A stretch of 64,000 nt of DNA from a virus (IMGVR_UViG_3300017649_000001:24798-88797), one strand, 5' to 3'. Shown: positions 2,045 to 63,314, counted from the first letter of the stretch. Notes: a model not told the origin generated them from the letters alone. A program made the numbers and translations.

Positions 2045-2165
2045 CCATGCGAAACCCGTGCGTATTGTCGTTATAAGATAAATTGCAATTGACGTATCAC
2101 TAACTAATTGATTAGTGATTACCTGAAACGAGCTTAGCTCGCACACGCTGATGCAAGAGGCACAT

Positions 2166-3707: not shown

Positions 3708-3725
3708 ATAACTAAAGGGTTAGTT

Positions 3726-3956
3726 ATGAATACTCAAACCAAGGAAGCGATGCGCGATCTTATCGGTCGCGCAGCGAAAATCTGGATCATGATCGACGGC
3801 GGTTATCTGCCCAACATGCGAAACAAGATTCCGACTGTTCGGATTTCGCAGCGCGAGGCTCTGCGCCTGATCGAACGTTGTGAGGACGATAAAGTGCCGA
3901 GCGGTCGGCTCAATGCGAATGGTCAGCTTCTGCTGCGGCCAGCGGGAGTGAACTGA
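3726..3956 (+). CDS. hypothetical protein
   Basis: ORF preceded by the palindrome ataactaaagggttagttat; stop overlaps the next start (TGATG). Confidence 0.4.
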   Translation: MNTQTKEAMRDLIGRAAKIWIMIDGGYLPNMRNKIPTVRISQREALRLIERCEDDKVPSGRLNANGQLLLRPAGVN

Positions 3957-7759: not shown

Positions 7760-7860
7760 AAACTATTTTATTGTCAAGTCTAGTAACTAAACAATTAGTT
7801 AGTTATCTTGATAGACCGATGCCCGTTCAGGGCTAACTCCTAACATCGCGAGTGCATTCT

Positions 7861-8889: not shown

Positions 8890-8908
8890 TATAACGAACG
8901 AGATAGTT

Positions 8909-10642
8909 ATGAAACCTGATTTCTTTTATCTGAACGAAACCTCTCTTCGCACGCTCTCGCGGGGATACCTTGAACCAGGTATCCCGAAGGAGGAACTTTT
9001 TGATGCGACGGTGAAGCGATTGCAGGCAATCGCCGACGCGTCCCACCAGCGCCTTATCAAGATGGGTAAAGCGCGTGAAGGTCACTCCGAAAAGCTCATG
9101 CATGGTTTTGCGCGTTGCTGGTCTTCGCTCTCGACACCGGTGATGGGTAATTTCGGCACCGATCGCGGTCTTCCGATCTCGTGCAATGGCTCGTTCATTG
9201 CCGATAACTCGGAATCCATCTTCTACAATTTCGCCGAAATGAGCCAGATGACGCGCTTTGGTGCGGGCACCTCGTCTTACATCGGCACGCGTCATAAGGG
9301 CGCCAAAATCCGCGGCGGCGGTGAATCTGCTGGTGTCGTGCCGTGGATGGGGCTTGCGAGCGCCATTACCAATACCGTTTCGCAGGCTGGTTTGCGCCGA
9401 GGCAATTGGGCGGGCTATATCGACATTCGCTCTCCCGACATTCACGACTTCCTGAAGATCCGCGATCCGCTGCATCCTGTTCAGCACGTCAGTTTCGGCG
9501 TCTGCATCGATGACGCTTGGATGATGGAAATGCTGAGCGAGCCTCGCAACGGTGAGAAGCGCATGTTGATGGTGGATATCATCCTCAAGCGCCGCAAGAC
9601 CGGTTACCCCTATATCTTCTTCACTGATGCCGCCAACGAGGCCCGACACCCACGTCTGGTCGAGCTGGAGCGCAAGATTTGGGCTTCCAATCTCTGCACC
9701 GAGATTATGCTGCCTGCCAATGAGGAAGAAAGCTTCGTTTGCAATCTGTCGAGCCTGAATCTCTCCACTTATGACGAGTGGAAGGATACCGACTGGATCG
9801 AGACGATGATCTATTTCCTTGATACCGTCATGGACGAGTACATCGAGAAGACCGAAGGTGTCATGTTCATGGACCGTGCCAACCGGTTCGCTAAGAACTG
9901 GCGCGCTCTGGGTCTGGGTGTTCTGGGTTACCACACCGCTTTGCAGGATCGTATGATCCCGTTCGAGAGCCAGGCGGCCCGTGACTTCAACATCGAGGTC
10001 CACAAGCTCTTGCAGGAGCAGTCATACGCAGCTTCTCGCAAAATGGCTGAAGAATATGGTGAAGCGGAAGGTATGAAGGGTACTGGCCAGCGCCATTTGA
10101 CGCTCAACGCCATCGCTCCAACCACCTCGTCGTCGATCATCTTTGGCCAGGTCTCGCAGTCGATTGAACCGTGGGAGGGCAATATCTTCGAGAACGATAA
10201 CGCTAAGGGCGTGTTCACGATGGTCAACCCGAAGTTTATCGAACTTCTTGACGAATACGGCAAGAACACTCCAGACGTGATCACCAGCATCGTGAAGCGC
10301 GGCGGCTCGGTGCAGCATCTGGACTTCCTGACGCCACTGGAAAAGAAGGTCTTCAAAACTTTCGCTGAAATCAGCCAGAGCGAGATCATCCGACAGGCTG
10401 CAGATCGTCAGGTTTATATCGATCAGGGACAGTCGCTCAATCTTATGGTCGATCCCGCTGTAGATATGGACGGTAACTTCCAGCTCATTCATCAGGCTTG
10501 GGCATCTGGATGCAAATCGCTCTACTATCACAAGAACTCGGCCGGCTCCGCTCGCAAGCTTCTGCGTGACGTTGCAAACACTCCAGTTCCAGTTGCTGAC
10601 AATGACACTGGCTTTGCGCAGTGTGTGGCTTGTGAGGCGTAA
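8909..10642 (+). CDS. nrdA: ribonucleotide reductase large (alpha) subunit, class I, short form without ATP cone
   Basis: Catalytic motif 'NLCTEI'; C-terminal CxxC 'CVACEA'; only 577 aa. Confidence 0.8.
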   Translation: MKPDFFYLNETSLRTLSRGYLEPGIPKEELFDATVKRLQAIADASHQRLIKMGKAREGHSEKLMHGFARCWSSLSTPVMGNFGTDRGLPISCNGSFIADNSESIFYNFAEMSQMTRFGAGTSSYIGTRHKGAKIRGGGESAGVVPWMGLASAITNTVSQAGLRRGNWAGYIDIRSPDIHDFLKIRDPLHPVQHVSFGVCIDDAWMMEMLSEPRNGEKRMLMVDIILKRRKTGYPYIFFTDAANEARHPRLVELERKIWASNLCTEIMLPANEEESFVCNLSSLNLSTYDEWKDTDWIETMIYFLDTVMDEYIEKTEGVMFMDRANRFAKNWRALGLGVLGYHTALQDRMIPFESQAARDFNIEVHKLLQEQSYAASRKMAEEYGEAEGMKGTGQRHLTLNAIAPTTSSSIIFGQVSQSIEPWEGNIFENDNAKGVFTMVNPKFIELLDEYGKNTPDVITSIVKRGGSVQHLDFLTPLEKKVFKTFAEISQSEIIRQAADRQVYIDQGQSLNLMVDPAVDMDGNFQLIHQAWASGCKSLYYHKNSAGSARKLLRDVANTPVPVADNDTGFAQCVACEA

Positions 10643-10864: not shown

Positions 10865-10988
10865 TCAACCCCTGCATCGCGTGTGCTATATGTGAATAAC
10901 TAACTCATTTGTTATTTACAATCTCTAACGAATTGGTTACACGCGATGCAACAGCAGCAACGGAGTACGAATTGTCTTCTAAAGACCA

Positions 10989-13407: not shown

Positions 13408-13511
13408 CCAATCGAACCCCTCGAAAAGCTTTGTTATAACTTAATGACTAAATAAATGATTAGTTATTTCTATTCGTTTATTGAGTTTCTTTCGACACTA
13501 AGGAGAAAATC

Positions 13512-15852: not shown

Positions 15853-15917
15853 TCGCCGATAGACGCCCTCGTTTCTTGCGTCTATAAGTAATTAATTAGT
15901 TAGTTAGAGCGAAAGCG

Positions 15918-19024: not shown

Positions 19025-19098
19025 GCAGTTTGGTTCTCGGGCGGATTTCACACCCGAAATCCGTCCATTGACATAACTAATTATTTACTGAGGTTAAC

Positions 19099-20488: not shown

Positions 20489-20779
20489 GTGAATCTGACA
20501 TGGCATCAATGGACGGCCATTATTCGCGTAGGCGATATTGGCCGACCAGTTATACCGAGCGAAATTGCCGAACTTCCAAGAGCTGATAGACCGACAATTG
20601 GGCTGGCGAGCGCACATTCCACTCTTCGCAGCCTAGCTAATAAGGGCTACGTAGAGATTATCGCGATCAAGCCGAGGCAGTTTTTTCTCACTTATCAGGG
20701 GAAGTTAGCTTACGAGTACGCTCGGAAAAGCCGTATCCTCGAGAGCGATGGGCAGGCCATCTTTAAATTAGCGAGCTGA
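20489..20779 (+). CDS. hypothetical protein, possible winged-helix DNA-binding protein
   Basis: 'STLRSLANKGYVEIIAIKPRQ' resembles a MarR/PadR recognition helix plus wing. Confidence 0.4.
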   Translation: MNLTWHQWTAIIRVGDIGRPVIPSEIAELPRADRPTIGLASAHSTLRSLANKGYVEIIAIKPRQFFLTYQGKLAYEYARKSRILESDGQAIFKLAS

Positions 20780-20788
20780 TTTCGTGGA

Positions 20789-20820
20789 CTGCATTTGCCG
20801 AATGCAGTCCTCAGTTTTTG
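20789..20820 (+). terminator. intrinsic terminator (member of the GCATT..GCCGAATGC hairpin family)
   Basis: ctgcatt-tgccg-aatgcag hairpin followed by TTTTT. Confidence 0.6.
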
Positions 20821-20888
20821 TGTATATCAATAAATAACTGTTTATTTATTCTCATTAGTTCGTTAGTGAGGCGGCAGGAGAAGCAGCA

Positions 20889-23445: not shown

Positions 23446-23598
23446 TCGTGGTCGACAATCTCCTTCTATTTCTCGCGGCCATTATTTGCGGTTTCATTGT
23501 CTGGAGTTATCCGCGGTGATCGTTGCTGAATAAACCGAACGATCTCCATAATGCTTGTCGCTATAACTAACTCAATCGTTAATTACACAGAGGCGAAA

Positions 23599-24749: not shown

Positions 24750-25433
24750 ATGGGCAAGGTATTTGCAATCGGCGACATTCATGGCCGTTTCGATCTTCTG
24801 GAGAAAGCTATCGAGGAGATCGAGGCTTGTAGCCACACCGGCGGTATAGTCGTCTTTCTGGGAGACTATATTGATCGCGGTCCGCAGAGTCGTGAAGTGA
24901 TCGAACGTCTAATGGCTGGGCCTTCGGATGCGGAGCGCTGGCATTGGATCTGCCTGCAGGGTAATCACGAGGACATGCTCCTTTCATGCATCGATGATGC
25001 AAAGATGGCGAACAACTGGTGGATGCCAAACGGTGGAGCGCAGACGCTAATGTCATACGGCGCGCAAAACGGCGATGAACTTTCGTCGGCACTACGGCGC
25101 GTCCCACAGCAGCACATTTCCTGGCTTCGATCTCTTCCACCGCTCTCCTATGACGACAATCGGATTTATGTTCACGCGAGCGTCGATGAAACCATCGATC
25201 TCGAGAACCATACTTCGAAGATTCTGCAATGGGATCGCTTCCCTGACGGCCACACCGGTGGCTATCGCGGAAAGCACATCGTTCATGGGCACACACCCCA
25301 TCGTGAGGTTGAACTGCACGAGGGGCGAACCAATCTCGATACCAACGCTGTCTTTACCGGCGTACTTTCTGTTGGCGTCTTCGATGATGATCAACCAGGC
25401 GGCCCGGTTCGCGTCATTTCCGTACGCGCATAA
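24750..25433 (+). CDS. Ser/Thr protein phosphatase (lambda PPase-like metallophosphoesterase)
   Basis: 'GDIHGRFDLL', 'GDYIDRGPQS', 'GNHE' motifs. Confidence 0.8.
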   Translation: MGKVFAIGDIHGRFDLLEKAIEEIEACSHTGGIVVFLGDYIDRGPQSREVIERLMAGPSDAERWHWICLQGNHEDMLLSCIDDAKMANNWWMPNGGAQTLMSYGAQNGDELSSALRRVPQQHISWLRSLPPLSYDDNRIYVHASVDETIDLENHTSKILQWDRFPDGHTGGYRGKHIVHGHTPHREVELHEGRTNLDTNAVFTGVLSVGVFDDDQPGGPVRVISVRA

Positions 25434-25454
25434 CTAACTATCTGGTGAGATAAT

Positions 25455-29763: not shown

Positions 29764-29827
29764 CCGATGTTTTCCCTTGCGCTAAAGTCATATATTAAAT
29801 AATAACTAACTGTTTAATGAGGCTCAC

Positions 29828-30940: not shown

Positions 30941-31142
30941 TGGCTTCAGCATCGAAAAGACAACTTGAGCGTGATTTGAAGGACGCTCTTTTCACCGCAG
31001 ATTTTACAGAACCGCTGTCGGATGAGGACACCGCGTTCGCAATCGCATTCTCAGCGAACTACGCGAGATATGCCGATCGAAACCCTCAGCGTTTTAGTTT
31101 ACAAACTAAGAATAACTAAAACGTTAGTTAACGAGGGCAAAA

Positions 31143-31403: not shown

Positions 31404-31444
31404 GATGCGCCTTAACGTTTAACTCAATTGTTATTGAGGCAATC

Positions 31445-35129: not shown

Positions 35130-35519
35130 CCAGCCGACAACCGTGTCGTGACAGTATATCTTTAGCAAGATTCGGGAGCAAAAGCAGAAAGCGTCTAGCC
35201 AGCAGACGCGTCGAAGAGGATGAGCCACTTCGACCTCGGCATAGGCTTTGCTCTCGAAATGGAGTGAGACGAATGGGTTTTATACCTGTGAGTGTCACGC
35301 TTACGATAAAGAAAACCCGCACGGGCTGGCAGTGCTACGTGCGGGTCACATTCTTTAACTAAGCGCATGGCTGGCGGAGTTAGCGCTCCGCCAGTCACTC
35401 CATGAACATAATCTCCCCTGTTGATAAAATCAAGATTGCGCAGAATAAGCCACGCGACACCCTTGCTGCTTTGTGAGACTTTAACTAATCAGTTATTGAC
35501 ACTAACGAGGCAATTAATA

Positions 35520-37788: not shown

Positions 37789-37923
37789 TCAACCAACCTG
37801 GTGCGATAAATCGATAGAGCATTGCCGAATGCATCCCTGTGAATAAACGTGCATTGTTATCTTACTTGTTATTGATTCTCACTAATCTGTGAGCTATTCA
37901 GGCGACAACACGGAGCAACAGCA

Positions 37924-38986: not shown

Positions 38987-39581
38987 CCAGTTTCGCAGAT
39001 GCCATCTTCCTGACAGGGCATGTCGGTGGATGGAGCAGCCAGCAACGAGCACGGTTGGCGCCAGAAATGGATCGGTTGGAGAATGCCCGAAACACTCCAA
39101 CCGGACTGCTCAAGAGTTCAGTCAAATGAGTGACGCATTAAGCCGAATGCATCCCTGCAACGCTTTTGCTAATCTATAAACATCAAAGAAAACAACGAAC
39201 TAAGCGCACGAAGCGCGGAGCAGCAGTAATGATCTGGACGATAATTTGAGGGTGGCAGACCTCTGAAATAGCCCGGCTGAAAGTACGCCGTTATTACATA
39301 TTCAGAGCCTCTTCGCCGACGTGCGCTAGAGTGACAAGCCAAAAAGGGCCAATGTCAGAGAGGTAATGAGCTGTCGCCACACCCGCCAGGGTAGTCTTGG
39401 TGAGATTAATCAATCCGTAGAACTCGCAGTGCTGGACCGACCGCCAGCCGAGGCGTTTGAACGGGGTAATCGCTTGATTGCTCACGATCCGCACTCTTCG
39501 CTTCAGCTAAGGACTAACTAAGTTGTTAGTGACGCATGAAGCCGGGTGCTGATCAATGAACAATCGAAAGGAAGAACATCA

Positions 39582-41600: not shown

Positions 41601-41885
41601 TCTTTCGGCGGGGTGTCATGGACCCGCCAGACGCGCAGCCGAAGGTCGTGTCACGTAAAACAACGTCGGCAGTCAGAGCAGTGGTCCTCCTTTCTACACT
41701 GTGATCTGATCGAATAGCGCACGATAAGCGCCAGGCGCTCCGCCAAGCGCCGCAAGATAGGCAAAGCGAGCTAATTCTCGCTTTGCCTACTTAGGTAAGT
41801 AACTTTCTAGTTATCTAACCACACGATCACCTGCGTGTTGTTTGATAGTTTGAAACATCAACAAAATCAGTGAGTGGAGATAAAC

Positions 41886-42526: not shown

Positions 42527-44430
42527 TTGGCTTCTTTACCACACCTCTTATATTCGGTTCATATCAGTTGTTTAAGAACGACAATCAACCAAAGGTCCGT
42601 CAAAAGCCGAGTGCTTGCCTTTGAAAAAGCGTATATTGAGAGCAGCAAATATCGAAAATAAAAACGAGCTTTGAAGACCGCTGTTACCAGCGGTCTTCAA
42701 GACGCGCAGCCGGCGGTCGTGTCTGTGAGGGAATAACACCGGCAGTTGGTGGCTTAATTTCGTAAGCCGAACCAACCGGAGACTTTAGCAAGAGGGCTTG
42801 TAACCCTTGTCTTCGAGAACAAAAATGCACCGCGATGGCAGTACGTGTGGAACAAAAAACGTCTGCTCGTCATCTTCCGATGACGTGAATGGAGGGTGTG
42901 GTATGCGTAGTACCACACCCTTTTTCATGCTTTACCAGAACTTAACATCCCATTGACAAATGCCCTAAATCGTCAACTCCAGTAAATCAGCCATTCATTT
43001 TCAGTTTGCGAAAGTAGACCAATCACTTCGTCAAATCAGCCACCAGACTGACAGGACGTAAATCAGGCCAGTCGTGAAACGCCGGCCAGCTTGTCGCTGA
43101 CTTTACCCGGAGTTTACAAAACTGGTCTGAAAGACTTGTTTTGACCTTTTGTAAATCGACGCAGACGATCACAGGCTCGATCCGACAGATGAAGAGCGCA
43201 CTTGTACGCTAGGCGTCGCGGATCTTCACCAGTGAGCATTTTTGAAGATTTCAAAAGAGTAATTTCTCGATAGCACCAATTCAGATTCGCACAAGAGATT
43301 TCTGCGGTGCGTAACTCAAAACCGCCAATAATCAGAACGACTGGTCCAGCTTCCCGCGCCAACTCTCAGATAAGCAAATAACTAGATAGGTAATTACCTT
43401 TTGGCCGAGACAAGCAAATAACTAAACTGCGCGAAACCTCGAGATAATAAGGCATACAGACAAAACACTAAATAGGCAGATAGGTACGTAGTTAGATAGA
43501 CCATAGGAACGAACATCGAGAAGAACCACAAACGATAACGAACGTCAGAACCAAGAGAAGCAAGACTGCCGGTCATAAGAGAAAGCGACAGAGCGATAGA
43601 GAGGAAGATTCTCACGCAAAGGTGAAAACGATACATAGATGAGAAGCGCCACTAGAGAACCCGATCATAGATCGAACGCATGAGAAACGCCTTATAGAGA
43701 GCTGAAGGTGAGATATGCGTATAGGGGTGAGAAAGATGCGCTAGACAGAAAGAACCTGTGAAAGTGTGAGACGGAGGAAGTGCGAGCGGCGCCTATGGCA
43801 TTTTTCCATAAACCGCCCCAATGGTTCACCTCCGTCAGCCAATTCCGGAAAAATTAGGAACCAAGGCGTTTTCCCATGGGCACGACCACATAGGCACACA
43901 GGCTCGCCCATCCCCTGCCCCGTAACCGCACGCCTACACGTCTATAAAGGCACGCAGGTAAACAGGCACATAGGCTTTTAGGCATAAACCGGAACATTGT
44001 TGCACCTATATGGAAAGAAGTTTCCACAAACCGAGCGGGATCGTTCCCGGAGCTTTCTTCCCACACTGCGAAAAGAGCCAACTCTCTATATATTATATAA
44101 ATAGGTACATAGGCATTTAGGTATATTTGTATTTAGGGAGTTGGACGAAATTGCAGAACTCCCGGTAGCGCGACCAATGGTTTCCCCAGACCGGTTATAA
44201 CTACATGCCTAAGCGCCTAAATCGTCAAATAACTACTTCCATAGGCCGGCCACAGTTCTCGCCATACCCCGGCTCCCATGTATGGAATATTTTTAAGATC
44301 AAATAAGCCACGTTTCCATGCATATAAGCCGAATGTAACCCGTCACGCGTTTTGATACTTTCAAATCATAGAGAGCACGAGGCAAAGGCGCTCTAGTGAA
44401 ACGAATTTCAACTCTGATGAGGAAAGTATC
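42527..44430. other. 1.9-kb ORF-free repeat- and hairpin-rich noncoding region; candidate origin, centromere or ncRNA locus
   Basis: No plausible ORF; purine-only tract ~43400-43790; ATAGGYA tandem iterons; CCWWWGG heptamers. Confidence 0.6.
42893..42927 (+). terminator. intrinsic terminator inside the noncoding region
   Basis: ggtgtggtatgcgtagtaccacacc hairpin followed by CTTTTTC. Confidence 0.55.
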
Positions 44431-45294
44431 ATGACCGAAGTATCCAATCTGCATCTTGACGTTGTTTCCGCCAACGCAATCGCCAACGATGTTGACCTTA
44501 ACGATATCGACGCGCTGATCGCTGCGGCCGAAAAGGAAGAAGCCACACAGAAGCTGATCGACGAAGCCAAGCAGGCCGCACTTGATGCGCAGGCCGAGCT
44601 GGACCAGGCCAATGACGACGATACGGGCGAGGCCGTTTCTGAGACGACCGTTAATATCACGCCGGTATTCGAAGAAGGCGACATTCACCAGATGCGTAAG
44701 AGCGTCGACGGCAAGACCGTTGAAAAGATCCGCGCAGAAGTGACGGCACAGTTCGATCAGCGCACCAAGTTCCACGCTGACAACGATCCGCACAACACCA
44801 ATATCCAGAAGAACCTGGCGAAGTACCGTCAGCAGTTCTCCTCGCCGCACACTGCCGGTGTGATCGCAGCGTGCAAGATGGAGGTTTCTTTCATCAATCG
44901 TGTGAAGCGTGGCGAACAGTGCTTCAACGTCTATTCGGTCGAGAAGGTCTCCAAGCTGATCAATCAGATCGTGCTCGGTGTCGCCAACAACGCCTATAAC
45001 GACGCCATCTTCAAGTCGATGTGGAACTTCATGAAGGCGAAGGTGCCTTTCACCACAGAAGCAGCCAAGGCAGCGATCTCCGACCAGATTGCGGTCAAGG
45101 ACAAGCAGATTAAGGCGCTTCTCGTGCGCCATACTGTGAAGCCAGGTACTGCGTCCACACAGTCGAGTTCCTCGCTGCGCGCGATGGAAGTTCTGGGCAT
45201 TGTGCGCAACGCCGGTACTGAAGGTCGCCAGGTGTGGGTGCTGAACGATAATCCGCAGATGCGCGCTGTTGCAGCGAGCTATGGACTGAACTGA
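44431..45294 (+). CDS. hypothetical protein
   Basis: RBS gaggaaag; strong terminator downstream; the overlapping 404-aa minus ORF is judged spurious. Confidence 0.5.
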   Translation: MTEVSNLHLDVVSANAIANDVDLNDIDALIAAAEKEEATQKLIDEAKQAALDAQAELDQANDDDTGEAVSETTVNITPVFEEGDIHQMRKSVDGKTVEKIRAEVTAQFDQRTKFHADNDPHNTNIQKNLAKYRQQFSSPHTAGVIAACKMEVSFINRVKRGEQCFNVYSVEKVSKLINQIVLGVANNAYNDAIFKSMWNFMKAKVPFTTEAAKAAISDQIAVKDKQIKALLVRHTVKPGTASTQSSSSLRAMEVLGIVRNAGTEGRQVWVLNDNPQMRAVAASYGLN

Positions 45295-45352: not shown

Positions 45353-45658
45353 CGTGATTGCTGACCATTGGATTTTTGGGGAACCAAGGCGAATGGCCTA
45401 TGGGTTGAGAAGCTGCGGGAAGAAGGCGCGACCAATGGGAGCCGCGGGACGGCGGAACGCACAATTAGGCAAATAGGTATTTCGGCATATAGGCTTGTAG
45501 GCACGCTTCTCACCTTCCGGCCATAGGTTGACGCATATCTCGCGTTGGAGCGCGCCAGTGACGGTTTATGCGCGTTTTATGATATGCCGTTTGTAACTAC
45601 GTAGTGATTTAGCTATTTAGTTATTGTCTGAAACACAAACGAGAAAGATAGCCTCACC

Positions 45659-45970: not shown

Positions 45971-46233
45971 CGCAAAAAGCAGCTTCGGCTGCTTTTCTTT
46001 ATGTGACGATCGACCATAGGCCAGGCCATTGGTCATCAGGCCGTTTCCAGGCGCCAGGCCAATGGTTATTTACCTATTTCCCTAAATCCCTACCCGCCTA
46101 TAAGCCTATCTCCTCACGGGACACTTCCGGACGCTCGAGCATTTACCGCATTCGGCTCACTACATGCCGATTTAGTTATCTAGTGATTTAGTTAGAATAA
46201 ACATATCGAAACACTCACTAGAAAGTCACTCAC

Positions 46234-47076: not shown

Positions 47077-47307
47077 CTAGAGCAAGGCAAGCGGGTCGTC
47101 AAAGAAACGCTTTCGCAGATTGTGGGGCACAGAATTATCCTCGCAAAAGGGCAGCCCCAGAAGATCCATCATAAGGTTGGTCGATTCCGCGGATTCGCGC
47201 ATGGACCGAAGTCTGTCCCGTCGTGCCCGGTCAAAAGCCAGTTTCTGGCGTGCCGAGAGATTAGGGCGGTCGAAAATGGGCAAAGTTGCCATATCAGCGC
47301 ACCTCAC
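47077..47307 (-). CDS. hypothetical protein (minus strand)
   Basis: Overlaps the upstream minus ORF by 14 nt. Confidence 0.3.
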   Translation of the reverse strand: MRCADMATLPIFDRPNLSARQKLAFDRARRDRLRSMRESAESTNLMMDLLGLPFCEDNSVPHNLRKRFFDDPLALL

Positions 47308-47488
47308 ACGCGAAAATCGTTTCCATCGTGACGTTTCCCACGTGGGTCACTTCGGTGAGCTTCTCGCGCTGGAGCTGGTAGCCAATGCAATCTTCCTGGG
47401 TAAGACCCGTGTCGAGAATGAACTCCTCGGATTGCGTCCCGTGCGTTGGCGACGAAAAGAGCGTTATGGCGATAAGAGCGAATTTCAT
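47294..47488 (-). CDS. small secreted protein (minus strand)
   Basis: Signal peptide 'MKFALIAITLFSSPTHG'; palindrome-motif variant upstream on the minus strand. Confidence 0.35.
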   Translation of the reverse strand: MKFALIAITLFSSPTHGTQSEEFILDTGLTQEDCIGYQLQREKLTEVTHVGNVTMETIFACEVR

Positions 47489-47750
47489 TGTGAGTTGCCT
47501 TCGTTGTTTGTCACTAATCGTTTAGTGATTTTGTTATAACTGATTAGTGAGTAATGAAAATCGGCTTATGAAGTTTCTCACATGGTAATTTCTAAGCAGG
47601 GAAGGGCGCCCGCGACCGATGAATCTCCGGATACGAACCAATGAGCCTGGCTAACCGTCCCCGGCAATTCCAATGGATCCGCCACTTTTGGATTTTTGGG
47701 GAACGGATGCAAATCCAATCAGGGGAACCGGTACATAGGTACATAGGTCT

Positions 47751-47832
47751 CGTGTGTGCGTGCGCATGTGCGTGCGCATGTGCATGTGCATGTGCATGTG
47801 CATGTGCATGTGCATGTGCATGTGCATGTGCG
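47751..47832. repeat. hexanucleotide microsatellite (CATGTG)n, about 9 perfect plus 4 imperfect units
   Basis: Tandem gcatgtgcatgtg...; gives artefactual His-Ala and Cys-Ala repeat ORFs on both strands. Confidence 0.9.
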
Positions 47833-48055
47833 CTCATGCGTCATGCGCACGCATGATCGAGATAACTAAATAGATAGTGATTTATTCGCTCAAAAACACG
47901 TCATAGAAGCGTTTCAGCGCGTTTCTAGTATCATTTGTCATCTGAAGCTAGAAACGCGCTCTAGAGTCAAATTTGAGCGTTTTTCGCAAAGCGTCATAGC
48001 GTGTCAATGATAGCGTTTCGCGCATGAACGCATGACACATGCGCAAAACGCAAAA

Positions 48056-48130: not shown

Positions 48131-48730
48131 TTATGCAAAGAATTCTTGCATCTTTGCAAGCGCGTCTGCATCTTTGTTAATTTTGAAGAAATTAACTCTT
48201 TCTTTTCTCGAAACTAGATCAAGAATTTTGAAGAAACGCAATGCAACGCTTGACGATGACGCTTGCGTGTCGCAAGTGCGAGCGTCTTTTACTTCATTGC
48301 GCTGATAGACAAGCGCTTTCAATTCGTCTGTAAGAACAATCTTTTCATCGACATTATTCTTTGTGCAAGCAAGCTTGAGAACGCTTGACGTGATATTTTC
48401 TTTATCATTCTTTACATGCAACAAAACAGTTCGCGTCACACATGCATGAAAGTCTTGCATCTTTTTGCTGTCATAAAACATGACAGAAAGCATTTCGCGA
48501 ATTTTGTTCAACGCATAGATATTATCATTCAACATAGATGCATCAGCGTTGATTGTGTCGAGATATTTTTCAACTTTCTCATATGAAACTAAATTCATCA
48601 GCTTAATCATGTTAGCTGTATTGTTATCAAGCTTGTCGCTTGCGCTTTCTTTCTTGCGTGCTTCAACGCGAGCGTTGATGATTGCAGCGTATTTGTTGAG
48701 CGTAGCAGTTTTTGCGTTGTTCTTCGACAT
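48131..48730 (-). CDS. hypothetical protein, AT-rich minus-strand gene (likely horizontally acquired)
   Basis: 199-aa Lys/Asn-rich ORF with GC far below the genome average; palindrome motif upstream on the minus strand; tandem terminators downstream. Confidence 0.5.
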   Translation of the reverse strand: MSKNNAKTATLNKYAAIINARVEARKKESASDKLDNNTANMIKLMNLVSYEKVEKYLDTINADASMLNDNIYALNKIREMLSVMFYDSKKMQDFHACVTRTVLLHVKNDKENITSSVLKLACTKNNVDEKIVLTDELKALVYQRNEVKDARTCDTQASSSSVALRFFKILDLVSRKERVNFFKINKDADALAKMQEFFA

Positions 48731-49134
48731 GTGAGTAACTTTCTAGTTAGTGAGTTAATATTTCGTCGTTTCGTTTCGACAATTTGTTTATAGCGTGCTG
48801 TTTTGAGAAAAAAAAGCGAAGTCTTACAAGTTTTGCTAAGTCTTTTAGGGGATGCCTAGGGCCAACACAGCACTCCGGGCAACTAACCTCCGCTCCTTTT
48901 AAACCACGGATATCATTTATATTTATTCCCGGCACCGATATTCAACCAGTCAGGCTTCCGGATATTCCAGAGCGCGCCGATTTACTTAACCTCCGCTTTG
49001 CACTGTTTACCCCATACCACACGTCCAGGATCCGTTGCCCATCCTCCGCACCCTCAATAAATAACTAAATAGTTATTGATTTTCTCAAAAGTGAGGACTA
49101 GGTTGAGGAAACCGAACCGATCAAGAGGATCGAA

Positions 49135-50795: not shown

Positions 50796-51095
50796 TCAGC
50801 CTTTTTCTTTGCTCTGACGACCGCGCAGCTCTTTCTCGACCTCAATAGCCTGAATGTGCTCTGACCGGCGCCAGTCGTTAAAAATCTCAACGAGGAAGTC
50901 ACGCATCGACATACCGCGCTGTGTGGCGTGCATTTTAAACTCGCGGTGCCAATATTCCGGCATATTGAAGGTCATCGAGACGATCTTCTTTTGCTTCATA
51001 TTGTCGGCAGCGGTTGGTTTCAGAGCCGAAGCTGCGCCCAAGAAACTCTTCCGACGCTCAGACGGCTTGATTGGAACGGGGGAGTCGTCAGACAT
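50796..51095 (-). CDS. ribbon-helix-helix DNA-binding protein (ParG/CopG-like)
   Basis: 'KIVSMTFNMPEYWHREFKMHATQRGMSMRDFLVEIF' is an RHH fold; immediately downstream of ParA on the same strand. Confidence 0.55.
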   Translation of the reverse strand: MSDDSPVPIKPSERRKSFLGAASALKPTAADNMKQKKIVSMTFNMPEYWHREFKMHATQRGMSMRDFLVEIFNDWRRSEHIQAIEVEKELRGRQSKEKG

Positions 51096-51741
51096 ATTCT
51101 TCCTCTACCAGCTTGTTCACTTTGCGAATGATTTCGTCCATCAAACCCATGGCGCGGTCGTTTAGCGTCTTGAAATTGCTTTCGCTGATAGCCCGACCGG
51201 TGTTTTGCGCCATCTGATAGCCAATTTTATAGGAAAGCTCGCTCTCGGCGATCTGGAACTCGGCTTCGCTGATGTAATTGCGAGCATCTGTAACAGCGTT
51301 TGTCGATTGATCCGACGTCTTGTTCAGGACGAACAGAATACGATGGTTCTCGACACCTTTGTTTCGCAGCTCCATAGCAAAGGCGACCTGCGGCTTCAGA
51401 TCATCAAATGTCAGACCCGTCGGAATGATCACAAGCGAGGATTGCTGAGCGATTGCGAGCGAAGTGATATCCGAGTCTGGCTTGCCATCGGCAACGACCA
51501 GATCCACTTCTTCGTGCTTGATAGCTGTCGGCGAATTGAAAGGCTTCACCTGGATAGCAGGTTCAACGCCTTCTGCCGCGCGTATCTTGCCCCAATCGGA
51601 GGCCGTGTTCTGACGCGTATTGAAATCGGCCAGCAAAACGCTCCAATCGTTCTTCACAAAGGTATGCGAGATCAAACGAGCGAGTGTTGATTTTCCGACG
51701 CCGCCCTTTTGCGAAAGACAGGCGATGACGAGATCGGCCAT
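51088..51741 (-). CDS. parA: ParA/MinD-family partition ATPase
   Basis: Deviant Walker A 'LSQKGGVGKST'. Confidence 0.85.
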   Translation of the reverse strand: MADLVIACLSQKGGVGKSTLARLISHTFVKNDWSVLLADFNTRQNTASDWGKIRAAEGVEPAIQVKPFNSPTAIKHEEVDLVVADGKPDSDITSLAIAQQSSLVIIPTGLTFDDLKPQVAFAMELRNKGVENHRILFVLNKTSDQSTNAVTDARNYISEAEFQIAESELSYKIGYQMAQNTGRAISESNFKTLNDRAMGLMDEIIRKVNKLVEEEYV

Positions 51742-52011
51742 TTCTACACCTCTGTAGTTAGATAACTATCTGCCTAGATAGCTTCATTCCTACATAGCTA
51801 AGTAAGCCAATTCGGTTAACGGGTCATTAAAAAAATATAATAGGTAAATGCCTATTTAGTGATTTAACTATTTACTTAGTGAGGAATCGGCTTTATATTC
51901 AGGAACAGTTGATGTTGCTGTTGACTATCGGGGAGAGGGGGTTACGCCTCTGACCCTTCTCCCCACTCTCTTATGGGCACCTCCTCCTATATCCCATACT
52001 TAAATGGCCGC

Positions 52012-53583: not shown

Positions 53584-53662
53584 TTCTTAGAGCACCTATT
53601 GCTTTTAGGAGCGTTTCCGTTAAAAGTAACTAAATGATTAGTTATCTTTTACAGAGTTTGGG

Positions 53663-54406
53663 ATGATTACGCCACGATATTTCGACGTTTCTGTCGGGGA
53701 ATTGCGCAAAAATCCATGGAATACGAACATCGTCAGTCCGGAAAACGAGCTGAAGATACGTAACTCCATCAAGCGCAACGGAATTTTTAAACCTATCCTC
53801 GTTCGCGAGATTGCAGGCGAGAGTGGTTACGAGATCATTGGCGGCGAACATCGATGGGAGCAAGCCGTCGCGCTCGGTTTCACCGCGGTTCCTGTCTGCA
53901 ATCTCGGCGCTATCTCCGAGAAGCAGGCCAAGGAGATTGGTATCATCGACAATGCGCGTTACGGCGCGGATGACAGCCTCGGTCTTGCTGAACTTCTGAA
54001 AGAGATATCGGACAGTATCGAGGATATTCAGGAATTTCTCCCATACGGCGAAGCTGATCTTGATGATTTGTTTGGCTCAATGAGCGCTATAGATCTCGAC
54101 AGCCTGGGGATTGACGACGAAGCAGCAGAAACCGAAGCGGAATTGCTAACCGAGCTTGCGCTGCCGACGCCCAAACCGTCCAAAACTCACACAATCATGC
54201 GCTTCAAGGTTTCTCTCGGTGACGCCGAGCGCCTTACTGCGCTCGTTGCAAAGACCCAGAAAGAGCAGGGCTTGAGCGGCTCCGAGGATCTGATCAACGC
54301 CGGTGATGCCCTTGTTCACCTTCTGAGCGAGCACCTTTCCACCAGCAAAGCCAAGTCCCTCGAAGAGCAGTTGGACGAAGCATTCAAGGATGAAACCAAT
54401 GAGTGA
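53663..54406 (+). CDS. ParB-N/sulfiredoxin-like nuclease-domain protein
   Basis: 'ILVREIAGESGYEIIGGEHRWEQAVALG' ParB box; divergent from the helicase gene with a palindrome motif in the shared promoter region. Confidence 0.65.
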   Translation: MITPRYFDVSVGELRKNPWNTNIVSPENELKIRNSIKRNGIFKPILVREIAGESGYEIIGGEHRWEQAVALGFTAVPVCNLGAISEKQAKEIGIIDNARYGADDSLGLAELLKEISDSIEDIQEFLPYGEADLDDLFGSMSAIDLDSLGIDDEAAETEAELLTELALPTPKPSKTHTIMRFKVSLGDAERLTALVAKTQKEQGLSGSEDLINAGDALVHLLSEHLSTSKAKSLEEQLDEAFKDETNE

Positions 54407-55088
54407 AATCGATCATTCAAAGCAGGCGATCGAAATCTGGGATATCGATAAGATCAAACCCTACGAGCAGAACGCCAAGATTCACGATGATGCACAGGTG
54501 GAGAGCCTGTCGCGCTCGATCAGTAAGTTTGGCTGGTCCTCGCCAATTGTCATCTGGACCGACGGCGTAATCATCGCCGGGCACGGTCGCCGTCTCGCAG
54601 CCCTTAAACTCGGGCTGAAACGTATCCCTGTCATCGTTCGCCGCGATCTGACGAAGCTTGAAGCCGACGCCATGCGCATCGCTGACAACCAGGTCGTCAG
54701 CAAGAACTACGACACCAATATTATGTCCGACGAACTCCGTCGCATTAATGCGGAGCTGGAGATCGGCGGCGGAGATTTCGAGCTTTTCGATCTCGGCTTC
54801 ACATCCAAGGAGCTTGATATTCTGGTCGAGCCTCTCGAGGAAATGGATCTCAGCGTCTTCACTGATGATTTAAGCGAAGCATTGGCCGAGCAGCGCGAGA
54901 AAAACGAGGCGATTGTCGCTTCCATTGACGAAACCGCAGCCCCAGTCGGCGACGCCTTTGGCTTCAAGCGGGTGACAATTGAGCAGTCTCGTGAAATCCG
55001 CAACTTTATGCGTCAGATCGAGACGGTCGAAGGACAAAAAGGGGCGGACGCCCTTTTGGCTTTCTTTCGTAAGTACATCACTATCTAG
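54390..55088 (+). CDS. ParB-N-domain protein (second copy)
   Basis: 'PIVIWTDGVIIAGHGRRLAALKLG' ParB-N motif. Confidence 0.65.
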   Translation: MKPMSEIDHSKQAIEIWDIDKIKPYEQNAKIHDDAQVESLSRSISKFGWSSPIVIWTDGVIIAGHGRRLAALKLGLKRIPVIVRRDLTKLEADAMRIADNQVVSKNYDTNIMSDELRRINAELEIGGGDFELFDLGFTSKELDILVEPLEEMDLSVFTDDLSEALAEQREKNEAIVASIDETAAPVGDAFGFKRVTIEQSREIRNFMRQIETVEGQKGADALLAFFRKYITI

Positions 55089-55106
55089 GCATTTAGGCTT
55101 TTACCT

Positions 55107-55532
55107 ATGTCAGAAAACGTCATCGATATTCGAACCCGCAAAACACGCGAGATTCCCGATCCGGAAGTTGAAAAACTGAAAGAAGAGGAGGCTCGAAAGT
55201 CAGCGATGAGCGAGCACCACGAAAGCTTGCTTAGATATCTCGACCAGGTGAGGGATTTGATCCTCGATGGCAAGCTTGAAACTCTCGTTCTGATCTCGCG
55301 CCACATAGAGACCGGTCACTATCACACTGCGTCAATTATCGACGCTAAAGCGACCGATCTCACAAAAGTTTACGGACACATCGGCGTTCTCGAAACCATG
55401 AAACTGGAACTGATGGAAGTAGCCAGTATGGCGCCGGCACTCATGGAAGATGGATCGACGATCGATCCATACAAAATCCACCCAGATATTAACCCGTCCG
55501 ACGACGAATTTGGATTTGAAGAAGATGACTGA
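55107..55532 (+). CDS. hypothetical acidic protein
   Basis: ORF. Confidence 0.4.
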   Translation: MSENVIDIRTRKTREIPDPEVEKLKEEEARKSAMSEHHESLLRYLDQVRDLILDGKLETLVLISRHIETGHYHTASIIDAKATDLTKVYGHIGVLETMKLELMEVASMAPALMEDGSTIDPYKIHPDINPSDDEFGFEEDD

Positions 55533-56172
55533 ATACGTCGTGGACAGGTCATTTATGACCTCGGTTGAGCGTACACCGCGCGTTCTGGAGATCGCCGAAG
55601 CCTTTGGCCTTGGTCTATCCGATAAAAAGTTCGTGGTTTACGACAATCTGAAGATCGAGATCAGGGAAGGCGATGTGGTTTATATCACAGGACAGTCTGG
55701 TTCTGGGAAATCGCTACTCCTTCGTGATCTGGCAGAAAAGATGGCCAACGGCGGCCTAAAAATCGCAAACCTGGACGAGATTATTCTGCCGGACGTGCCG
55801 GTAATCGACTGCCTCGGCAAAGACACGCTCGATGCTACCAATTTGCTGTCCAAGGCCGGCATTTCGGACGCCTATCTCTATACGCGCAAGCCGAAAGAAC
55901 TGTCTGATGGTCAGCGCTACCGCCTCCGCCTGGCGAAAGTCATGGAGCAGGATGATGCGGACGTATGGATCGCGGACGAGTTCGGTGCGGTTCTAGACCG
56001 CAATACCGCCAAGGCAGTCGCCTTCAACATCGCAAAAGTCGCCCGCGCCAAGAACAAGAGACTGATGGTGGCGACCACTCACACGGATCTGCTGTCGGAG
56101 CTGGCACCTTCTTTGACCATCATGAAACGCTTCCGCGAGAAGGTCGAGATTACCAAAGGAGAAGCGACTTGA
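55525..56172 (+). CDS. standalone ABC-type ATPase (nucleotide-binding domain only)
   Basis: Walker A 'GQSGSGKS', signature 'LSDGQRYRL', Walker B 'WIADEFGAVLD', H-loop 'ATTHTD'. Confidence 0.65.
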   Translation: MTEYVVDRSFMTSVERTPRVLEIAEAFGLGLSDKKFVVYDNLKIEIREGDVVYITGQSGSGKSLLLRDLAEKMANGGLKIANLDEIILPDVPVIDCLGKDTLDATNLLSKAGISDAYLYTRKPKELSDGQRYRLRLAKVMEQDDADVWIADEFGAVLDRNTAKAVAFNIAKVARAKNKRLMVATTHTDLLSELAPSLTIMKRFREKVEITKGEAT

Positions 56173-56337
56173 ACGTCGATCTGGTTGAATTGTGGGTATT
56201 TGCTCAGCTTCTAACGCTGTTCGTGGTGCTCATCGGATCACCGCTTGCGTTCGTTCTTTTCGTTCTACCTGCAATGTTCATCAGCAACGTTCGCGGAATG
56301 CTACAAAAACGCTCTCAGGAGCACACAGGCGAGCGCC

Positions 56338-57213
56338 ATGAATGATTTAGCAATCGAGACACTGATCACCAGGAACGATAGCCCACGCCCGTATTTCTCG
56401 CTGATGGATGAAATGATTATCAGCCGCGGTACGAAGGATGACTGGAACCTCCTGCACGATCTTCATTACAAGGCTGAGAACCTACCGATCGGTCCTCGTT
56501 TCTGGAAGCTCACCCTTCATGGCGAGACCATCGGCGTACTTGTATCTGGAACACCAAAAGGAATGCTCCGTGAGCGGCATCAGGTATTTCCAAATCTGAA
56601 GCCAGGTTCCGGAGATTCCTACGCGTCGAATAAGCACCGGTATGTCTACATAAATGCCAACTTTCGCGTAATTTCCCGCTTCGTGATCGACACCATGTAC
56701 CGCGGAATCGGTGCTGGATATCGAATGATGAACCTGGTCTCTCGCCTGGAGGGAATGACTTTCATGGAGATCCAATCCTCCATGTCGAAGTTTAATTATT
56801 TTGGCCAGAAGGCAGGCTTCAAATTCGTCAAGCCGGCGAATGCCAATAACTATGATCGGGTGATGAAATTCTTCCGGGCCAACTTTGGCTCAAATCCGCA
56901 GGATTTCGAAGCACTGGTGAACGAATTCAACGAGCTGACACCGGAACACCAGGAAGAGATGAAAAGCCTCCTGGGCAGCTTCTATTTCCGTTTCAGCGCA
57001 TTGGAAAACACCAGCAACGCAGGTGCGAACCTTGAAGCGCGTGCCGCCACTATGACCGCTCGGGATTTGATCAAGGGTATTCAGCAAATCGGTCTGGCAT
57101 CTCCCATGTACGGAATCTGGAAGAATCCCGATATCGGCCGCGAGTTACCGGACTCATTGCCGTTAAATGCGTTTGATCGCCAAAAGCCGAATGAAAGGTT
57201 GATTTTGCCATGA
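56338..57213 (+). CDS. hypothetical protein (weak GNAT-like 'YRGIGAGYRMM' motif)
   Basis: ORF; ATG at 56338 (the track start at 56245 overlaps the ATPase gene). Confidence 0.4.
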   Translation: MNDLAIETLITRNDSPRPYFSLMDEMIISRGTKDDWNLLHDLHYKAENLPIGPRFWKLTLHGETIGVLVSGTPKGMLRERHQVFPNLKPGSGDSYASNKHRYVYINANFRVISRFVIDTMYRGIGAGYRMMNLVSRLEGMTFMEIQSSMSKFNYFGQKAGFKFVKPANANNYDRVMKFFRANFGSNPQDFEALVNEFNELTPEHQEEMKSLLGSFYFRFSALENTSNAGANLEARAATMTARDLIKGIQQIGLASPMYGIWKNPDIGRELPDSLPLNAFDRQKPNERLILP

Positions 57214-57473
57214 GTAGGCTTGGAAAGCCGAACCGGACGAGAATCCAAAAGGAGATCATGGGTATCGTCATGCGCGCCGCGAGCGACGGAACACCTGTGA
57301 AGCTGCAGGACTTGCCAGCCATGCTTTCACACGCCCCATCTTATGACGCCACAAGAGTGAGCATCCGGTTCCTTGAAAACCACGGCGTGCTAAAGCGTGT
57401 CCGAGATAAGGGCCTCACGTATCTACATCCCACTCCTTCTTCCTACGAGTGGTTTCGGATGAATTACCGGTGA
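57210..57473 (+). CDS. hypothetical protein
   Basis: ATGA-overlap ORF. Confidence 0.4.
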   Translation: MSRLGKPNRTRIQKEIMGIVMRAASDGTPVKLQDLPAMLSHAPSYDATRVSIRFLENHGVLKRVRDKGLTYLHPTPSSYEWFRMNYR

Positions 57474-57483
57474 TGCGATTTCG

Positions 57484-57572
57484 TCCAACTCTCTAAATAT
57501 ATTATATACAGAATGATAAATATCTAATTAGTTATTTATATATTTAGAGAGTTGGATGAAATTGCAGAACCC
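57484..57572. promoter_or_regulatory. AT-rich inverted-repeat element ending in GTTGGATGAAATTGCAGAAC (second copy at 44078-44172)
   Basis: 18-bp inverted repeat tccaactctctaaatata/tatatttagagagttgga around an AT-rich core; lies upstream of the terminase genes. Confidence 0.5.
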
Positions 57573-57661
57573 GCCGGATAATGGGCCTGAAACTCATATA
57601 ATTGTAAAATCATGCCGGTTATGGTAATTAACTGTTTAGTTATTAACGCTGGAAGTACAAG

Positions 57662-59589: not shown

Positions 59590-59649
59590 CCTTGCTATTA
59601 ACTAATTAGTTAGTTATTCTTTGCTCCAAGTTAATGGTCGAGTTGTATT

Positions 59650-62277: not shown

Positions 62278-62381
62278 CTAACCGGTTATTTATTTTCTCC
62301 TTGTTTTGGCTTGGCTGTTCGGTTAACATAACTAAATAGTTAGTTAATCGAATGGCCTTTTTGTGCCCAAGGAGAAATTGA

Positions 62382-63284: not shown

Positions 63285-63314
63285 TCTTGTTACTAACTAA
63301 ACCGTTAGTTATTA

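Follow-up and report, generated by a model that had tools for sequence, protein, structure and literature searches.

The viral DNA analysed here, a stretch of 64,000 nucleotides referred to as the window, is identical in sequence to a segment of a circularly permuted, 112,222-bp contig from a metagenome (ENA ERZ27256336 k141_273740). Its genes for replication and metabolism include those for a UvsX/RecA-like recombinase, SbcCD, ribonucleotide reductase (RNR), thymidylate synthase and RtcB, and its plasmid and virion genes those for ParA, a DEAD-box helicase, two ParB_N proteins, terminase, portal, scaffold and an HK97-type capsid protein (MCP). The gene order is syntenic with that of Rhizobium phage RHEph10. 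The capsid protein is 50–54% identical to those of Rhizobium phages RHph_N1_10, V1VFA-S and B1VFA, 46–49% identical to those of ~110 kb Pseudomonas and Stenotrophomonas phages, and 39% identical to that of Salmonella phage SSU5. Further capsid homologues lie on contigs or plasmids of 105–120 kb from Ochrobactrum, Paracoccus, Shinella, Methylobacterium, Ensifer and Rhizobium, and 953 plasmids in PLSDB have one too, chiefly those of Klebsiella, Escherichia, Acinetobacter, Enterobacter, Yersinia and Salmonella.

Earlier work classes RHEph10 and pLM21S1 as plasmid-like prophages of the RepC type (PMC4447125), SSU5 serves as a model phage-plasmid (PMC7969092), and phage-plasmid-like features have been reported for B1VFA and V1VFA-S (PMC12509600). 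Judged by its sequence, the source genome is assigned to the SSU5/RHEph10/pLM21S1 phage-plasmid supergroup as a plasmid-prophage. Megablast of the window against phages and plasmids returned short 72–80% stretches at most, or nothing. A single-protein MCP scan of IMG/VR gave no match, and an alignment-based scan recovered relatives. Scans of the window for tRNAs and Rfam families gave no match.

Distribution of the palindrome

In this plasmid-like phage of 112 kb, about half the transcription units are preceded by a palindrome of 18–26 bp. The exact pattern TAACTAA-N{3,6}-TTAGTTA occurs 7 times in the 64-kb window and never in 100 shuffles; the spacer is exactly 4 nt in all 7, so that of the first-pass annotation, which had allowed 3 to 6, the palindrome stands and the spacer range does not. 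Allowing up to 3 mismatches to TAACTAA-N4-TTAGTTA gave 46 matches in the window against 0.78 expected, which merge into 36 distinct sites (Table 1). These counts bear out the earlier description of the element as real and phage-wide. In the flanks of the source contig, 8 further sites were found within the 20 kb reached either side of the window.

The sites are concentrated between genes. By crude, self-made ORF calls on the window, 32 of the 36 are non-coding, against a non-coding share of 18.6% (binomial p = 1e-19), and each of the remaining 4 is followed by a start codon more plausible than the one called, so that their coding status is an artefact of start assignment. Sites occupy 26 of the 53 intergenic gaps of at least 15 nt in the window, whose convergent gene junction has none. 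Even the lone half-sites behave in this way, with 22 copies of TAACTAA (20 non-coding) and 17 of TTAGTTA (17/17 non-coding), each against about 3 expected. The frequency before starts relative to coding sequence, proposed earlier as the comparison that could refute the claim, is thus in its favour in the window. From the end of the palindrome to the next start codon there are −1 to 127 nt, mostly 6–60, roughly the 10–40 bp estimated before. The genes that follow belong to all classes, from SbcCD and RNR through portal and MCP to tail genes.

At 25 of the 29 positions listed in the first-pass annotation a site lies within a few bases. The sites placed at 35472, 49046 and 51745 are real but lie 10–18 bp away, at 35482, 49062 and 51763, whereas 1176 and 37441 have half-sites or swapped arms only. 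Sites absent from that list are those at 8892, 31420, 37879, 43379, 47537, 47863, 51865 and 57517.

Table 1. Palindromic sites, half-site arrays and promoter-like features (window coordinates)
Feature	Position	Strand	Remarks
Site	2101–2118		TAACTAATTGATTAGTGA, 1 mismatch; 32 nt 5' of SbcD-like gene; TTGACG 6 nt upstream
Site	3709–3726		Perfect; occupies entire 18-nt gap; ATG overlaps last base; AAGGG in spacer
Site	7784–7801		Perfect; 50 nt 5' of nrdB; TTGTCA at −13 to −8; syntenic with RHEph10 57398
Site	8892–8909		2 mismatches; nrdB/nrdA gap, abuts ATG
Site	10897–10914		1 mismatch; 5' of thymidylate synthase gene; CTATAT at −11 to −6 (ends 5 nt upstream)
Weaker partner	10922		21 bp from register 10901 of site 10897–10914
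Site	13449–13466		TAAATAAATGATTAGTTA; left arm A, right arm G, uncompensated
Site	15885–15906		Overlapping registers 15885 and 15889; five TANN units; hairpin immediately before
Site	19074–19091		2 mismatches; abutting TTGACA; right arm holds GAGG Shine-Dalgarno sequence; hairpin before
Site	20831–20848		TAAATAACTGTTTATTTA; behind terminator-like hairpin 20786–20810; partner at 20852 (+21 bp)
Site	23564–23581		2 mismatches; TTGTCG 3 nt upstream; likelier gene start downstream, past GAGG
Site	25431–25448		Weak, 3 mismatches; first TAA is stop codon of upstream gene
Site	29803–29820		2 mismatches; ATG 7 nt on
Site	31113–31130		Perfect; ATG 12 nt on
Site	31420–31437		Weak, 3 mismatches; small ORF downstream
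Site	35482–35499		2 mismatches; partner at 35503 (+21 bp)
Site	37879–37896		TCAC-type, 3 mismatches; TTGATT at −7 to −2; partner at 37858 (−21 bp)
Site	39515–39532		1 mismatch
Site	41796–41813		Short variant GTAACTTTCTAGTTA; hairpin before
Site	43379–43396		Weak, 3 mismatches; ORF-poor region; within phased TANN arrays
Array	45594–45625		TAACTAcgTAGTGAttTAGCTAttTAGTTA; half-sites, 8-bp period
Array	46161–46194		TTAGTTAtcTAGTGAttTAGTTA; half-sites, 8-bp period
Site	47511–47528		TCACTAATCGTTTAGTGA, perfect TCAC/GTGA variant; 22 nt before minus-strand gene 47294–47488
Site	47537–47554		Weak, 3 mismatches; 26 bp from 47511
Site	47863–47880		2 mismatches; 25 nt before minus-strand ORF 47592–47837
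Site	48732–48753		Short variant GTAACTTTCTAGTTAGTGA; abuts start of minus-strand gene 48131–48730
Site	49058–49079		Registers 49058 and 49062; gene 49135 lies 55–59 nt on
Site	51763–51780		Weak, 3 mismatches; 21 nt before parA (minus strand)
Phased array	51841–51882		Ends in TAACTATTTACTTAGTGA, 2 mismatches; half-sites, 8-bp period
Site	53627–53644		Perfect; helicase/ParB divergent region; 18 nt before ParB_N gene
Site	57517–57538		Centre of roughly 70-bp giant inverted repeat (57484–57555), 5' of TerS
Site	57625–57642		1 mismatch; TerS 19 nt on
Portal promoter-like unit	59592–59620	+	TTGCTA 59592–59597; perfect palindrome 59599–59616 as spacer; TATTCT 59615–59620; TTGACC at 59586
O1, MCP promoter region	62275–62292		First TAA is scaffold gene stop; centre about −52 from predicted start
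Putative MCP promoter	62301–62329	+	TTGTTT, 17 nt, TAACAT; last T is O2 position 1; layout conserved in relatives
O2	62329–62346		Perfect; centred on predicted +1 of MCP promoter; MCP ATG 35 nt on
Post-MCP promoter-like unit	63287–63315	+	TTGTTA; perfect palindrome 63294–63311 as spacer; TATTAT
MCP terminator hairpin	63316–63342	+	GC stem GGGGCAGG-taatt-CCTGCCCC and T run; directly behind post-MCP unit; in all relatives

Versions in relatives and anatomy of the site

Every relative examined has its own version of the palindrome at the same gene junctions (below, a slash separates the halves). The shared junctions are helicase/ParB, small terminase (TerS), portal, two positions 5' of the MCP gene and one 3' of it before the terminator; the site at 53627–53644 has syntenic counterparts in RHEph10, SSU5, the close relatives L125 and L126, and Acinetobacter baumannii. 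The SSU5 version is TAAGTAAGT/ACTTACTTA (TARGTAAGT/ACTTACYTA), present in 27–37 copies, for example TAAGTAAGTACTTACTTA. TAACTAA-N4-TTAGTTA is absent from RHEph10, where the version is TCAGTCAAT/ATTGACTGA: about 44 intergenic copies of ARTCAA-NN-TTGAYT were found, extending to GTMARTMAATATTKAYTKAC, and 4 copies lie at junctions of the window (nrdB, the divergent helicase/ParB region, portal, and capsid stop/terminator). The A. baumannii plasmid p107 has TCAGTCAYT/ASTGACTGA. L125, with an 82% identical capsid protein, has a TAAMTAAA half (TAAMTAAAYRTTTAKTTA), L126 a TAAATAAA half (TAAATAAAYRTTTATTTA), and L123, from Ochrobactrum, the shorter ATAAAY/RTTTAT. These kindred palindromes at the same junctions in elements of Salmonella, Acinetobacter and Rhizobium are most likely the binding site of one master regulator. 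No paper describing this palindrome in SSU5-type elements was found in the literature.

The related loci were scanned for the skeleton T1 A3 T5 A7 ... T12 A14 T16 A18 with complementarity of the four variable pairs. This gave 450 sites in 1.36 Mb, compared to 26 in block-shuffled controls, in a sample of about 80 loci (with about 60 IMG/VR and GTDB loci) whose members, as relatives, are not independent. An exact-pattern scan of IMG/VR gave mostly single chance matches among the matches listed. The commonest half-sites among relatives are TAAGTAAGT, TAAGTCAGT, TCAGTCAGT and T[CA]A[AG]TCAAT. The C-containing TAACTAA class is confined, among the loci scanned, to the window and L125. The commonest class, TAAGTAAGT, is common to Salmonella phage SSU5 and many high-GC relatives. 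Immunity specificities that diverge rapidly would not be expected to share a class across such distant hosts, and this counts against a repressor.

In the pool of 398 non-redundant sites the symmetry reaches four bases past either end of the 18-mer (left, A-W-N-R; right, Y-N-W-T), giving a family-wide form of about 26 bp, A-W-N-R/T.A.T.A....T.A.T.A/Y-N-W-T, with an 18-bp core. The TA steps are phased every 4 bp, which explains the many matches offset by 4 bp, and the window contains 17 runs of at least three TANNTA units at this period, compared to 0.9 in shuffles. Half-sites also form arrays with an 8-bp period (Table 1), found in addition in the ORF-poor region 43379–44140. At four places in the window, a weaker partner site lies exactly 21 bp away, the kind of spacing that cooperative binding to a single helix face would call for.

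The palindrome is found in the transcribed strand immediately 5' of start codons, and at 3709 the Shine-Dalgarno-like AAGGG would sit in the loop of a hairpin, so that an RNA structure controlling translation, processing or stability has to be considered; the first-pass annotation had likewise allowed for a translational-control site. However, the arms do not vary as a stem would. Among 55 arm pairs in the window that deviate from the consensus, Watson–Crick pairing is kept in 2 and G-U type pairing in 5 more, and in L125 arms of the C..T and A..G kinds occur side by side. As RNA, the window sites are predicted to fold weakly (median energy −2.2 kcal/mol), Rfam matches none of them, and in L126 the palindrome runs through the centre and leaves no room for a loop. 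The palindrome thus has neither the compensated pairing nor the stable stem of a terminator or structured RNA, and we consider an RNA hairpin extremely unlikely. Between lineages both arms change together, whereas within one site they change independently. The uncompensated deviations argue for a DNA site of a dimeric protein, and the separate variation of the half-sites suggests that each is read on its own, as a dimer subunit would.

Relation to promoters

Canonical promoters (TTGACA-N16-18-TATAAT) are not enriched in the window, and none falls on a palindrome. The TTGACA-like hexamer noted previously upstream of the element is present as TTGnnn at some sites only, starting 7 or 13 nt before it. 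In the pooled set of 398 sites, TTGnnn starts 7 nt before the palindrome in 59 cases and at the mirrored position in 4. A TTG peak at −7 as a general feature was nevertheless rejected, because the signal stems from two homologous junctions rather than from many independent sites: it is present at the portal junction in 42 of 45 relatives and at the post-MCP junction in 31 of 58. That the asymmetric TTG signal comes from these two junctions only is an observation that counts against a repressor.

At these two junctions the layout is TTGnnn, one base, the palindrome, and TAYNWT from palindrome position 17; by its sequence, the palindrome here is the 17-nt spacer of a sigma70-like promoter. The combination TTGnnn-17 ± 1 nt-TAnnnT around the palindrome was found only at the portal and post-MCP units (59592–59620 and 63287–63315) and their homologues, and most other window sites have no such spacer-type layout. 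The junction 5' of the MCP gene has a different conserved layout, consisting of O1, a T run, CTTGnn, 17–18 nt, and TAACAT/TAGAAT ending at O2 position 1, with O1 about 54–60 bp upstream (window span 62275–62346). Given where the −10-like hexamer ends, O2 would be centred on +1 and O1 on about −52. The register of the palindrome to the hexamers therefore varies, from spacer at the portal and post-MCP units to +1 (O2) and about −52 (O1) at the MCP gene, and the fixed position that had been claimed for it is not borne out. Behind the capsid gene, the transcript would begin within the 5' arm of the terminator hairpin, which suggests escape from termination. Elsewhere, sites lie in tight gene junctions (3709, 8892, 25431) or abut the ribosome-binding site, and those at 15885, 19074, 20831 and 41796 follow directly behind hairpins.

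The −10-like hexamer (TAYNWT/TAnnnT) flanks the palindrome equally often on the two sides (159 versus 159 of 398 sites), so that it is part of the symmetric site and no proof of orientation. As a separate point against a repressor, the presence of TAYNWT on both flanks means that the palindrome could be part of the promoter itself. Orientation tests at fixed −10/−35 offsets were not significant in SSU5, RHEph10 or the window, except that the window showed a −35 bias of borderline significance (p = 0.048). We infer from the sequence that the −35/−10-like hexamers at the sites are real promoters.

The palindrome might be an activator site that replaces or assists −35 recognition, like that of Lpa at the 11 late promoters of P1, with the TAYNWT that starts 8 nt past the dyad centre serving as −10. 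TATCAT, TACAAT or TACCAT starts at palindrome position 17 in SSU5, RHEph10 and L123, which would put the dyad at about −20, and in the late promoters of P1 an inverted repeat of 9 bp, AAGTGACTT, has its centre at −22 and is followed by 4 nt and the −10 (PMC10695390). The SSU5 core AAGT/ACTT resembles that repeat, and the scarcity of canonical sigma70 promoters in the window, which also counts in favour of a repressor, fits an activator as well. However, a −10 on one side is hard to reconcile with a hexamer equally frequent on either side, and hence part of the symmetric site; the position varies between spacer, +1 and −52; and at the portal and post-MCP units good −35 and −10 hexamers are present anyway, 17 nt apart. 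Many sites end 0–13 nt before the start codon, where a transcript starting downstream would be without a ribosome-binding site. No Lpa homologue was detected by tblastn (nothing below E = 1) in the window, SSU5 (minus its last 3.3 kb), RHEph10, L123, L125 or L126, a search that excluded the other 29 kb of the source genome. On balance, an activator site is rather unlikely, though it is the chief rival of the repressor operator.

A core promoter for a phage-specific sigma factor would account for an element that is phage-wide and positioned before genes, and a Sigma70_r2 gene does adjoin cobS in the source genome (L220 1850–2476), RHEph10 likewise encoding one (gp045). Sigma promoters, however, are asymmetric, while the palindrome is symmetric to about ±13 bp; SSU5 has the element yet no annotated sigma factor; and some sites abut start codons. 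This reading is very unlikely, and of the promoter or operator proposed in the first-pass annotation, the operator is retained, whereas the symmetry is at odds with a special polymerase's core promoter.

The sites could instead serve the DNA itself, as loading sites for partition or condensation, packaging sites or recombination hotspots, and be intergenic because they are not encodable in genes: on either strand, two of the three reading frames through the palindrome meet stop codons. Two ParB_N genes and two genes for ABC-like ATPases form a conserved module that adjoins a perfect site, and in Cluster O mycobacteriophages the 17-bp dyad repeats were considered to have no part in transcription initiation (PMC4351075). 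Against this, the junction positions are kept from Salmonella to Rhizobium phages while the letters change, the convergent junction is free of sites, and the sites align with −35/−10-like hexamers at three conserved junctions. A non-transcriptional role thus appears unlikely.

A candidate global repressor and its parallels

Symmetric sites read by halves, in variable register, some of them paired two helical turns apart or placed on both sides of a promoter, and present before both early and late genes are what the operator set of a global repressor would look like, and the single-regulator operator proposed earlier is consistent with one dyad-symmetric element that recurs genome-wide before all gene classes. 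We therefore favour, with about even confidence, the reading that the palindrome is the operator of a global repressor encoded by the phage. Each palindrome would be occupied by one DNA-binding protein of the phage, as a dimer or as two dimers together; the sites would overlap or flank sigma70-like host-type promoters of nearly all lytic transcription units, some lying also inside tight gene junctions; and bound sites would most likely block RNA polymerase. One protein could in this way silence the replication, nucleotide-metabolism, packaging, head and tail genes during plasmid life, and its loss would turn on all of these gene sets. That a protein binds the palindromes, and that the effect of binding is repression, are both deduced from sequence.

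The SSU5 minus-strand cluster at 87–99 kb, which contains annotated repressor-like genes, has no site, and the RHEph10 repC and parA units have none with 0–1 mismatches; these site-free regions hint at a repressor. The window itself carries sites before parA (51763, 51865), which is contrary to a repressor. RHEph10 and the Nickievirus phages were isolated as plaque-formers and their lysogeny is putative, a further observation on that side.

Searches for the binding protein gave few leads. When motif class was compared by mutual information with 11 protein families near the MCP gene, none stood out; that no family within 10 kb of this gene tracks the motif class is likewise listed against a repressor. 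The annotated SSU5 regulators SSU5_054, 093, 116 and 121 have no homologues in the window or RHEph10, and Pfam, PHROGs and NCBIfam searches with the unknown proteins between 41.8 and 52 kb gave nothing useful. The candidates named in the first-pass annotation have weak matches to LexA_DNA_bind (20489–20779, E = 0.0026) and ParG (50796–51095, E = 0.09). The sequence-specific DNA-binding candidates conserved between SSU5 and the window are the small terminase and the two ParB_N proteins.

The two ParB_N genes (53663–54406 and 54390–55088) are conserved family-wide beside a perfect site, and their products are weak candidates for the binder. The first has a ParB-type N domain, with GEHRW replacing GERRxR, an acidic linker, and a C-terminus of the form KTHTIMRFKVSL-helix-helix, modelled as an extended chain and two helices. 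This segment is possibly a ribbon-helix-helix fold, which Pfam and PDB profile searches did not confirm. Its strand residues hardly vary among 40 relatives and show no correspondence to motif class, and we treat the protein as a lead, not a finding. It is conceivable, if quite unlikely, that the palindromes are loading or anchoring sites for this protein, its paralogue and the two ABC-like ATPases, with KorB-like, nucleotide-dependent silencing. If true, a whole 110-kb phage genome would be shut down from about 60 promoter-proximal palindromes, by a system common to the SSU5, AB and RHEph10 phage-plasmids of Enterobacteria, Acinetobacter and Alphaproteobacteria.

Other phages offer parallels for dispersed sites of this kind. 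Like the palindrome, the C1 operators of P1 belong to a plasmid-prophage, serve one repressor, are scattered over about 90–110 kb and overlap sigma70 promoters at varying registers (NC_005856 annotation). They are, however, 17-bp asymmetric sites of a C1 monomer, number about 10–20 and control early functions only, whereas the element here is symmetric over 18–26 bp, is present in roughly 60 copies per genome by extrapolation and also precedes late genes; it does not resemble the annotated 17-bp consensus. Cluster A stoperators, bound by L5 gp71, likewise occur by the dozen in short intergenic gaps, within operons and before late genes, and from one relative to another their motif and the repressor evolve in step (PMC6550527, PMC9283540). 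The window is comparable in this respect, with 36 sites in 64 kb, 26 of 53 gaps occupied, and junctions filled by the sites at 3709, 8892 and 25431. Stoperators differ in being 13–14 bp long, asymmetric, oriented with transcription and bound by a monomer, while the palindrome is symmetric in core and flanks.

The Cluster O repeats, TGTTCGG-N3-CCGAACA, are also palindromes of 7+N+7 in more than 30 copies genome-wide, for which a dimeric binding protein is predicted (PMC4351075, PMC6439249). They belong to unrelated phages and have an unrelated sequence, about a third fall within genes and the majority are away from promoters, and family-wide variation such as that seen here is not described for them. 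The late promoters of P1 share with our sites a short inverted repeat about 20 bp 5' of the start, beside the −10 (PMC10695390). The Lpa box is 9 bp long, at a fixed distance from the −10 (repeat at −22, no −35), and is found in 11 copies before late genes only, in contrast to an element of 18–26 bp with variable register, all gene classes and, at the portal and post-MCP units, a good −35. The palindrome thus lacks the defining features of C1 operators and stoperators, which are asymmetric, and of Lpa boxes, which have a fixed register. In KorB of the IncP plasmid RK2 (at OB sites) and omega of pSM19035 (at heptads), a partition-type protein doubles as a plasmid-wide repressor; OB, TTTAGCSGCTAAA, present in 12 copies, is unlike the palindrome. 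The element resembles the dispersed-operator systems (C1, stoperators, Cluster O) in kind, and KorB/omega in possible mechanism.

SSU5-type phage-plasmids are common, as the capsid-gene homologues in PLSDB plasmids indicate, and we found no description in the literature of how they silence or switch on their lytic genes. An operator family whose position is kept from Salmonella to Rhizobium and whose letters are lineage-specific would provide a handle on this control. The sites could be used as bait for the regulator, would define its regulon, and could be mutated to test lysis versus plasmid maintenance. The element may also serve as a simple signature for members of the supergroup and their transcription units, and its motif classes would predict which phage-plasmids are mutually immune and which are not.

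Repeats around the terminase gene and in an ORF-poor region

An element of ~95 bp is present twice in the window, in copies separated by 13.4 kb (see the table for all coordinates). It is composed of a giant inverted repeat of ~70 bp (CCAACTCTCTAWATAT...ATATWTAGRGAGTTGG) followed by AYGAAATTGCAGAAC, and in the copy preceding the small terminase gene (TerS) a palindrome site occupies the centre. Four related loci (L147, L149, L184 and L125) share this giant inverted repeat, likewise upstream of TerS. Possibly the element acts as a signal for packaging or replication.

A second repeat-rich stretch, 1.9 kb without a convincing ORF, contains many 8-bp-phased units (nATAGGnA, TAGATA and CCTAAATCGTCAA, the last occurring twice) as well as two strong hairpins, and thereby resembles an iteron region or an origin. 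The gene directly downstream of it encodes a 287-aa product with zero matches in PHROGs, Pfam and NCBIfam. Elsewhere in the window, a simple repeat plus palindrome, catgtgcatgtgcatgtgcgctcatgcgtcatgcgcacgcatg, adjoins the palindrome site at 47863.

Motif copies were also seen in L067 (IMG/VR UViG 3300001351_000822), a low-GC viral contig of 7.7 kb and 35% GC that is apparently unrelated. Within 1.3 kb of this contig, TTATAACTAAA-N2-4-TTTAGTTATA occurs in three exact and several near copies, some of which are followed, at most ~20 nt further on, by a TATAAAAA-like stretch.

Coordinates of the features (window positions unless a locus is named)
Feature	Location	Strand
~95-bp element, copy preceding TerS	57484-57580	
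~95-bp element, other copy	44077-44165	
ORF-poor region	42527-44430	
Strong hairpins in ORF-poor region	42671-42700; 42827-42844	
287-aa gene	44431-45294	
Simple repeat plus palindrome	47813-47862	
ParA and 99-aa protein genes	50796-51741	minus
Phased TAG-type repeats	51763-51882	
ParB_N/ABC-like ATPase module	53663-57473	
The same module, related locus L132	118-3538	
The same module, related locus L219	545-4734	
Promoter-like unit and capsid terminator	63287-63342	
Sigma70_r2 gene, source contig L220	1850-2476	
Motif copies, viral contig L067	3100-4400	

The ParB_N module and a possible partition cassette

Between the helicase and terminase genes lies a module in which a pair of ParB_N genes and a pair of genes for ABC-like ATPases are accompanied by small ORFs; it is kept across the phage-plasmid relatives SSU5, RHEph10 and the A. 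baumannii plasmids. A small ParA (217 aa) is encoded separately. The 99-aa protein encoded next to it matches ParG weakly (E = 0.09), and phased TAG-type repeats are located upstream of this pair. The two genes look like a type Ib partition cassette, distinct from the ParB_N genes.

Sigma factor gene and capsid terminator

In the source genome, a gene for a Sigma70_r2 protein of 208 aa is flanked by cobS and the gene for DNA polymerase III alpha; it lies upstream of the RecA gene of the window, at a distance of 8 kb. RHEph10 has a counterpart, gp045, in the same setting, and the SSU5 annotation lists no sigma factor.

The terminator of the capsid gene is directly preceded by a promoter-like unit, a layout kept in nearly all relatives. 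Since the unit abuts the terminator, transcription would be expected to start within the 5' arm of the hairpin, and this arrangement may allow capsid transcripts to stop while the downstream transcript can start.
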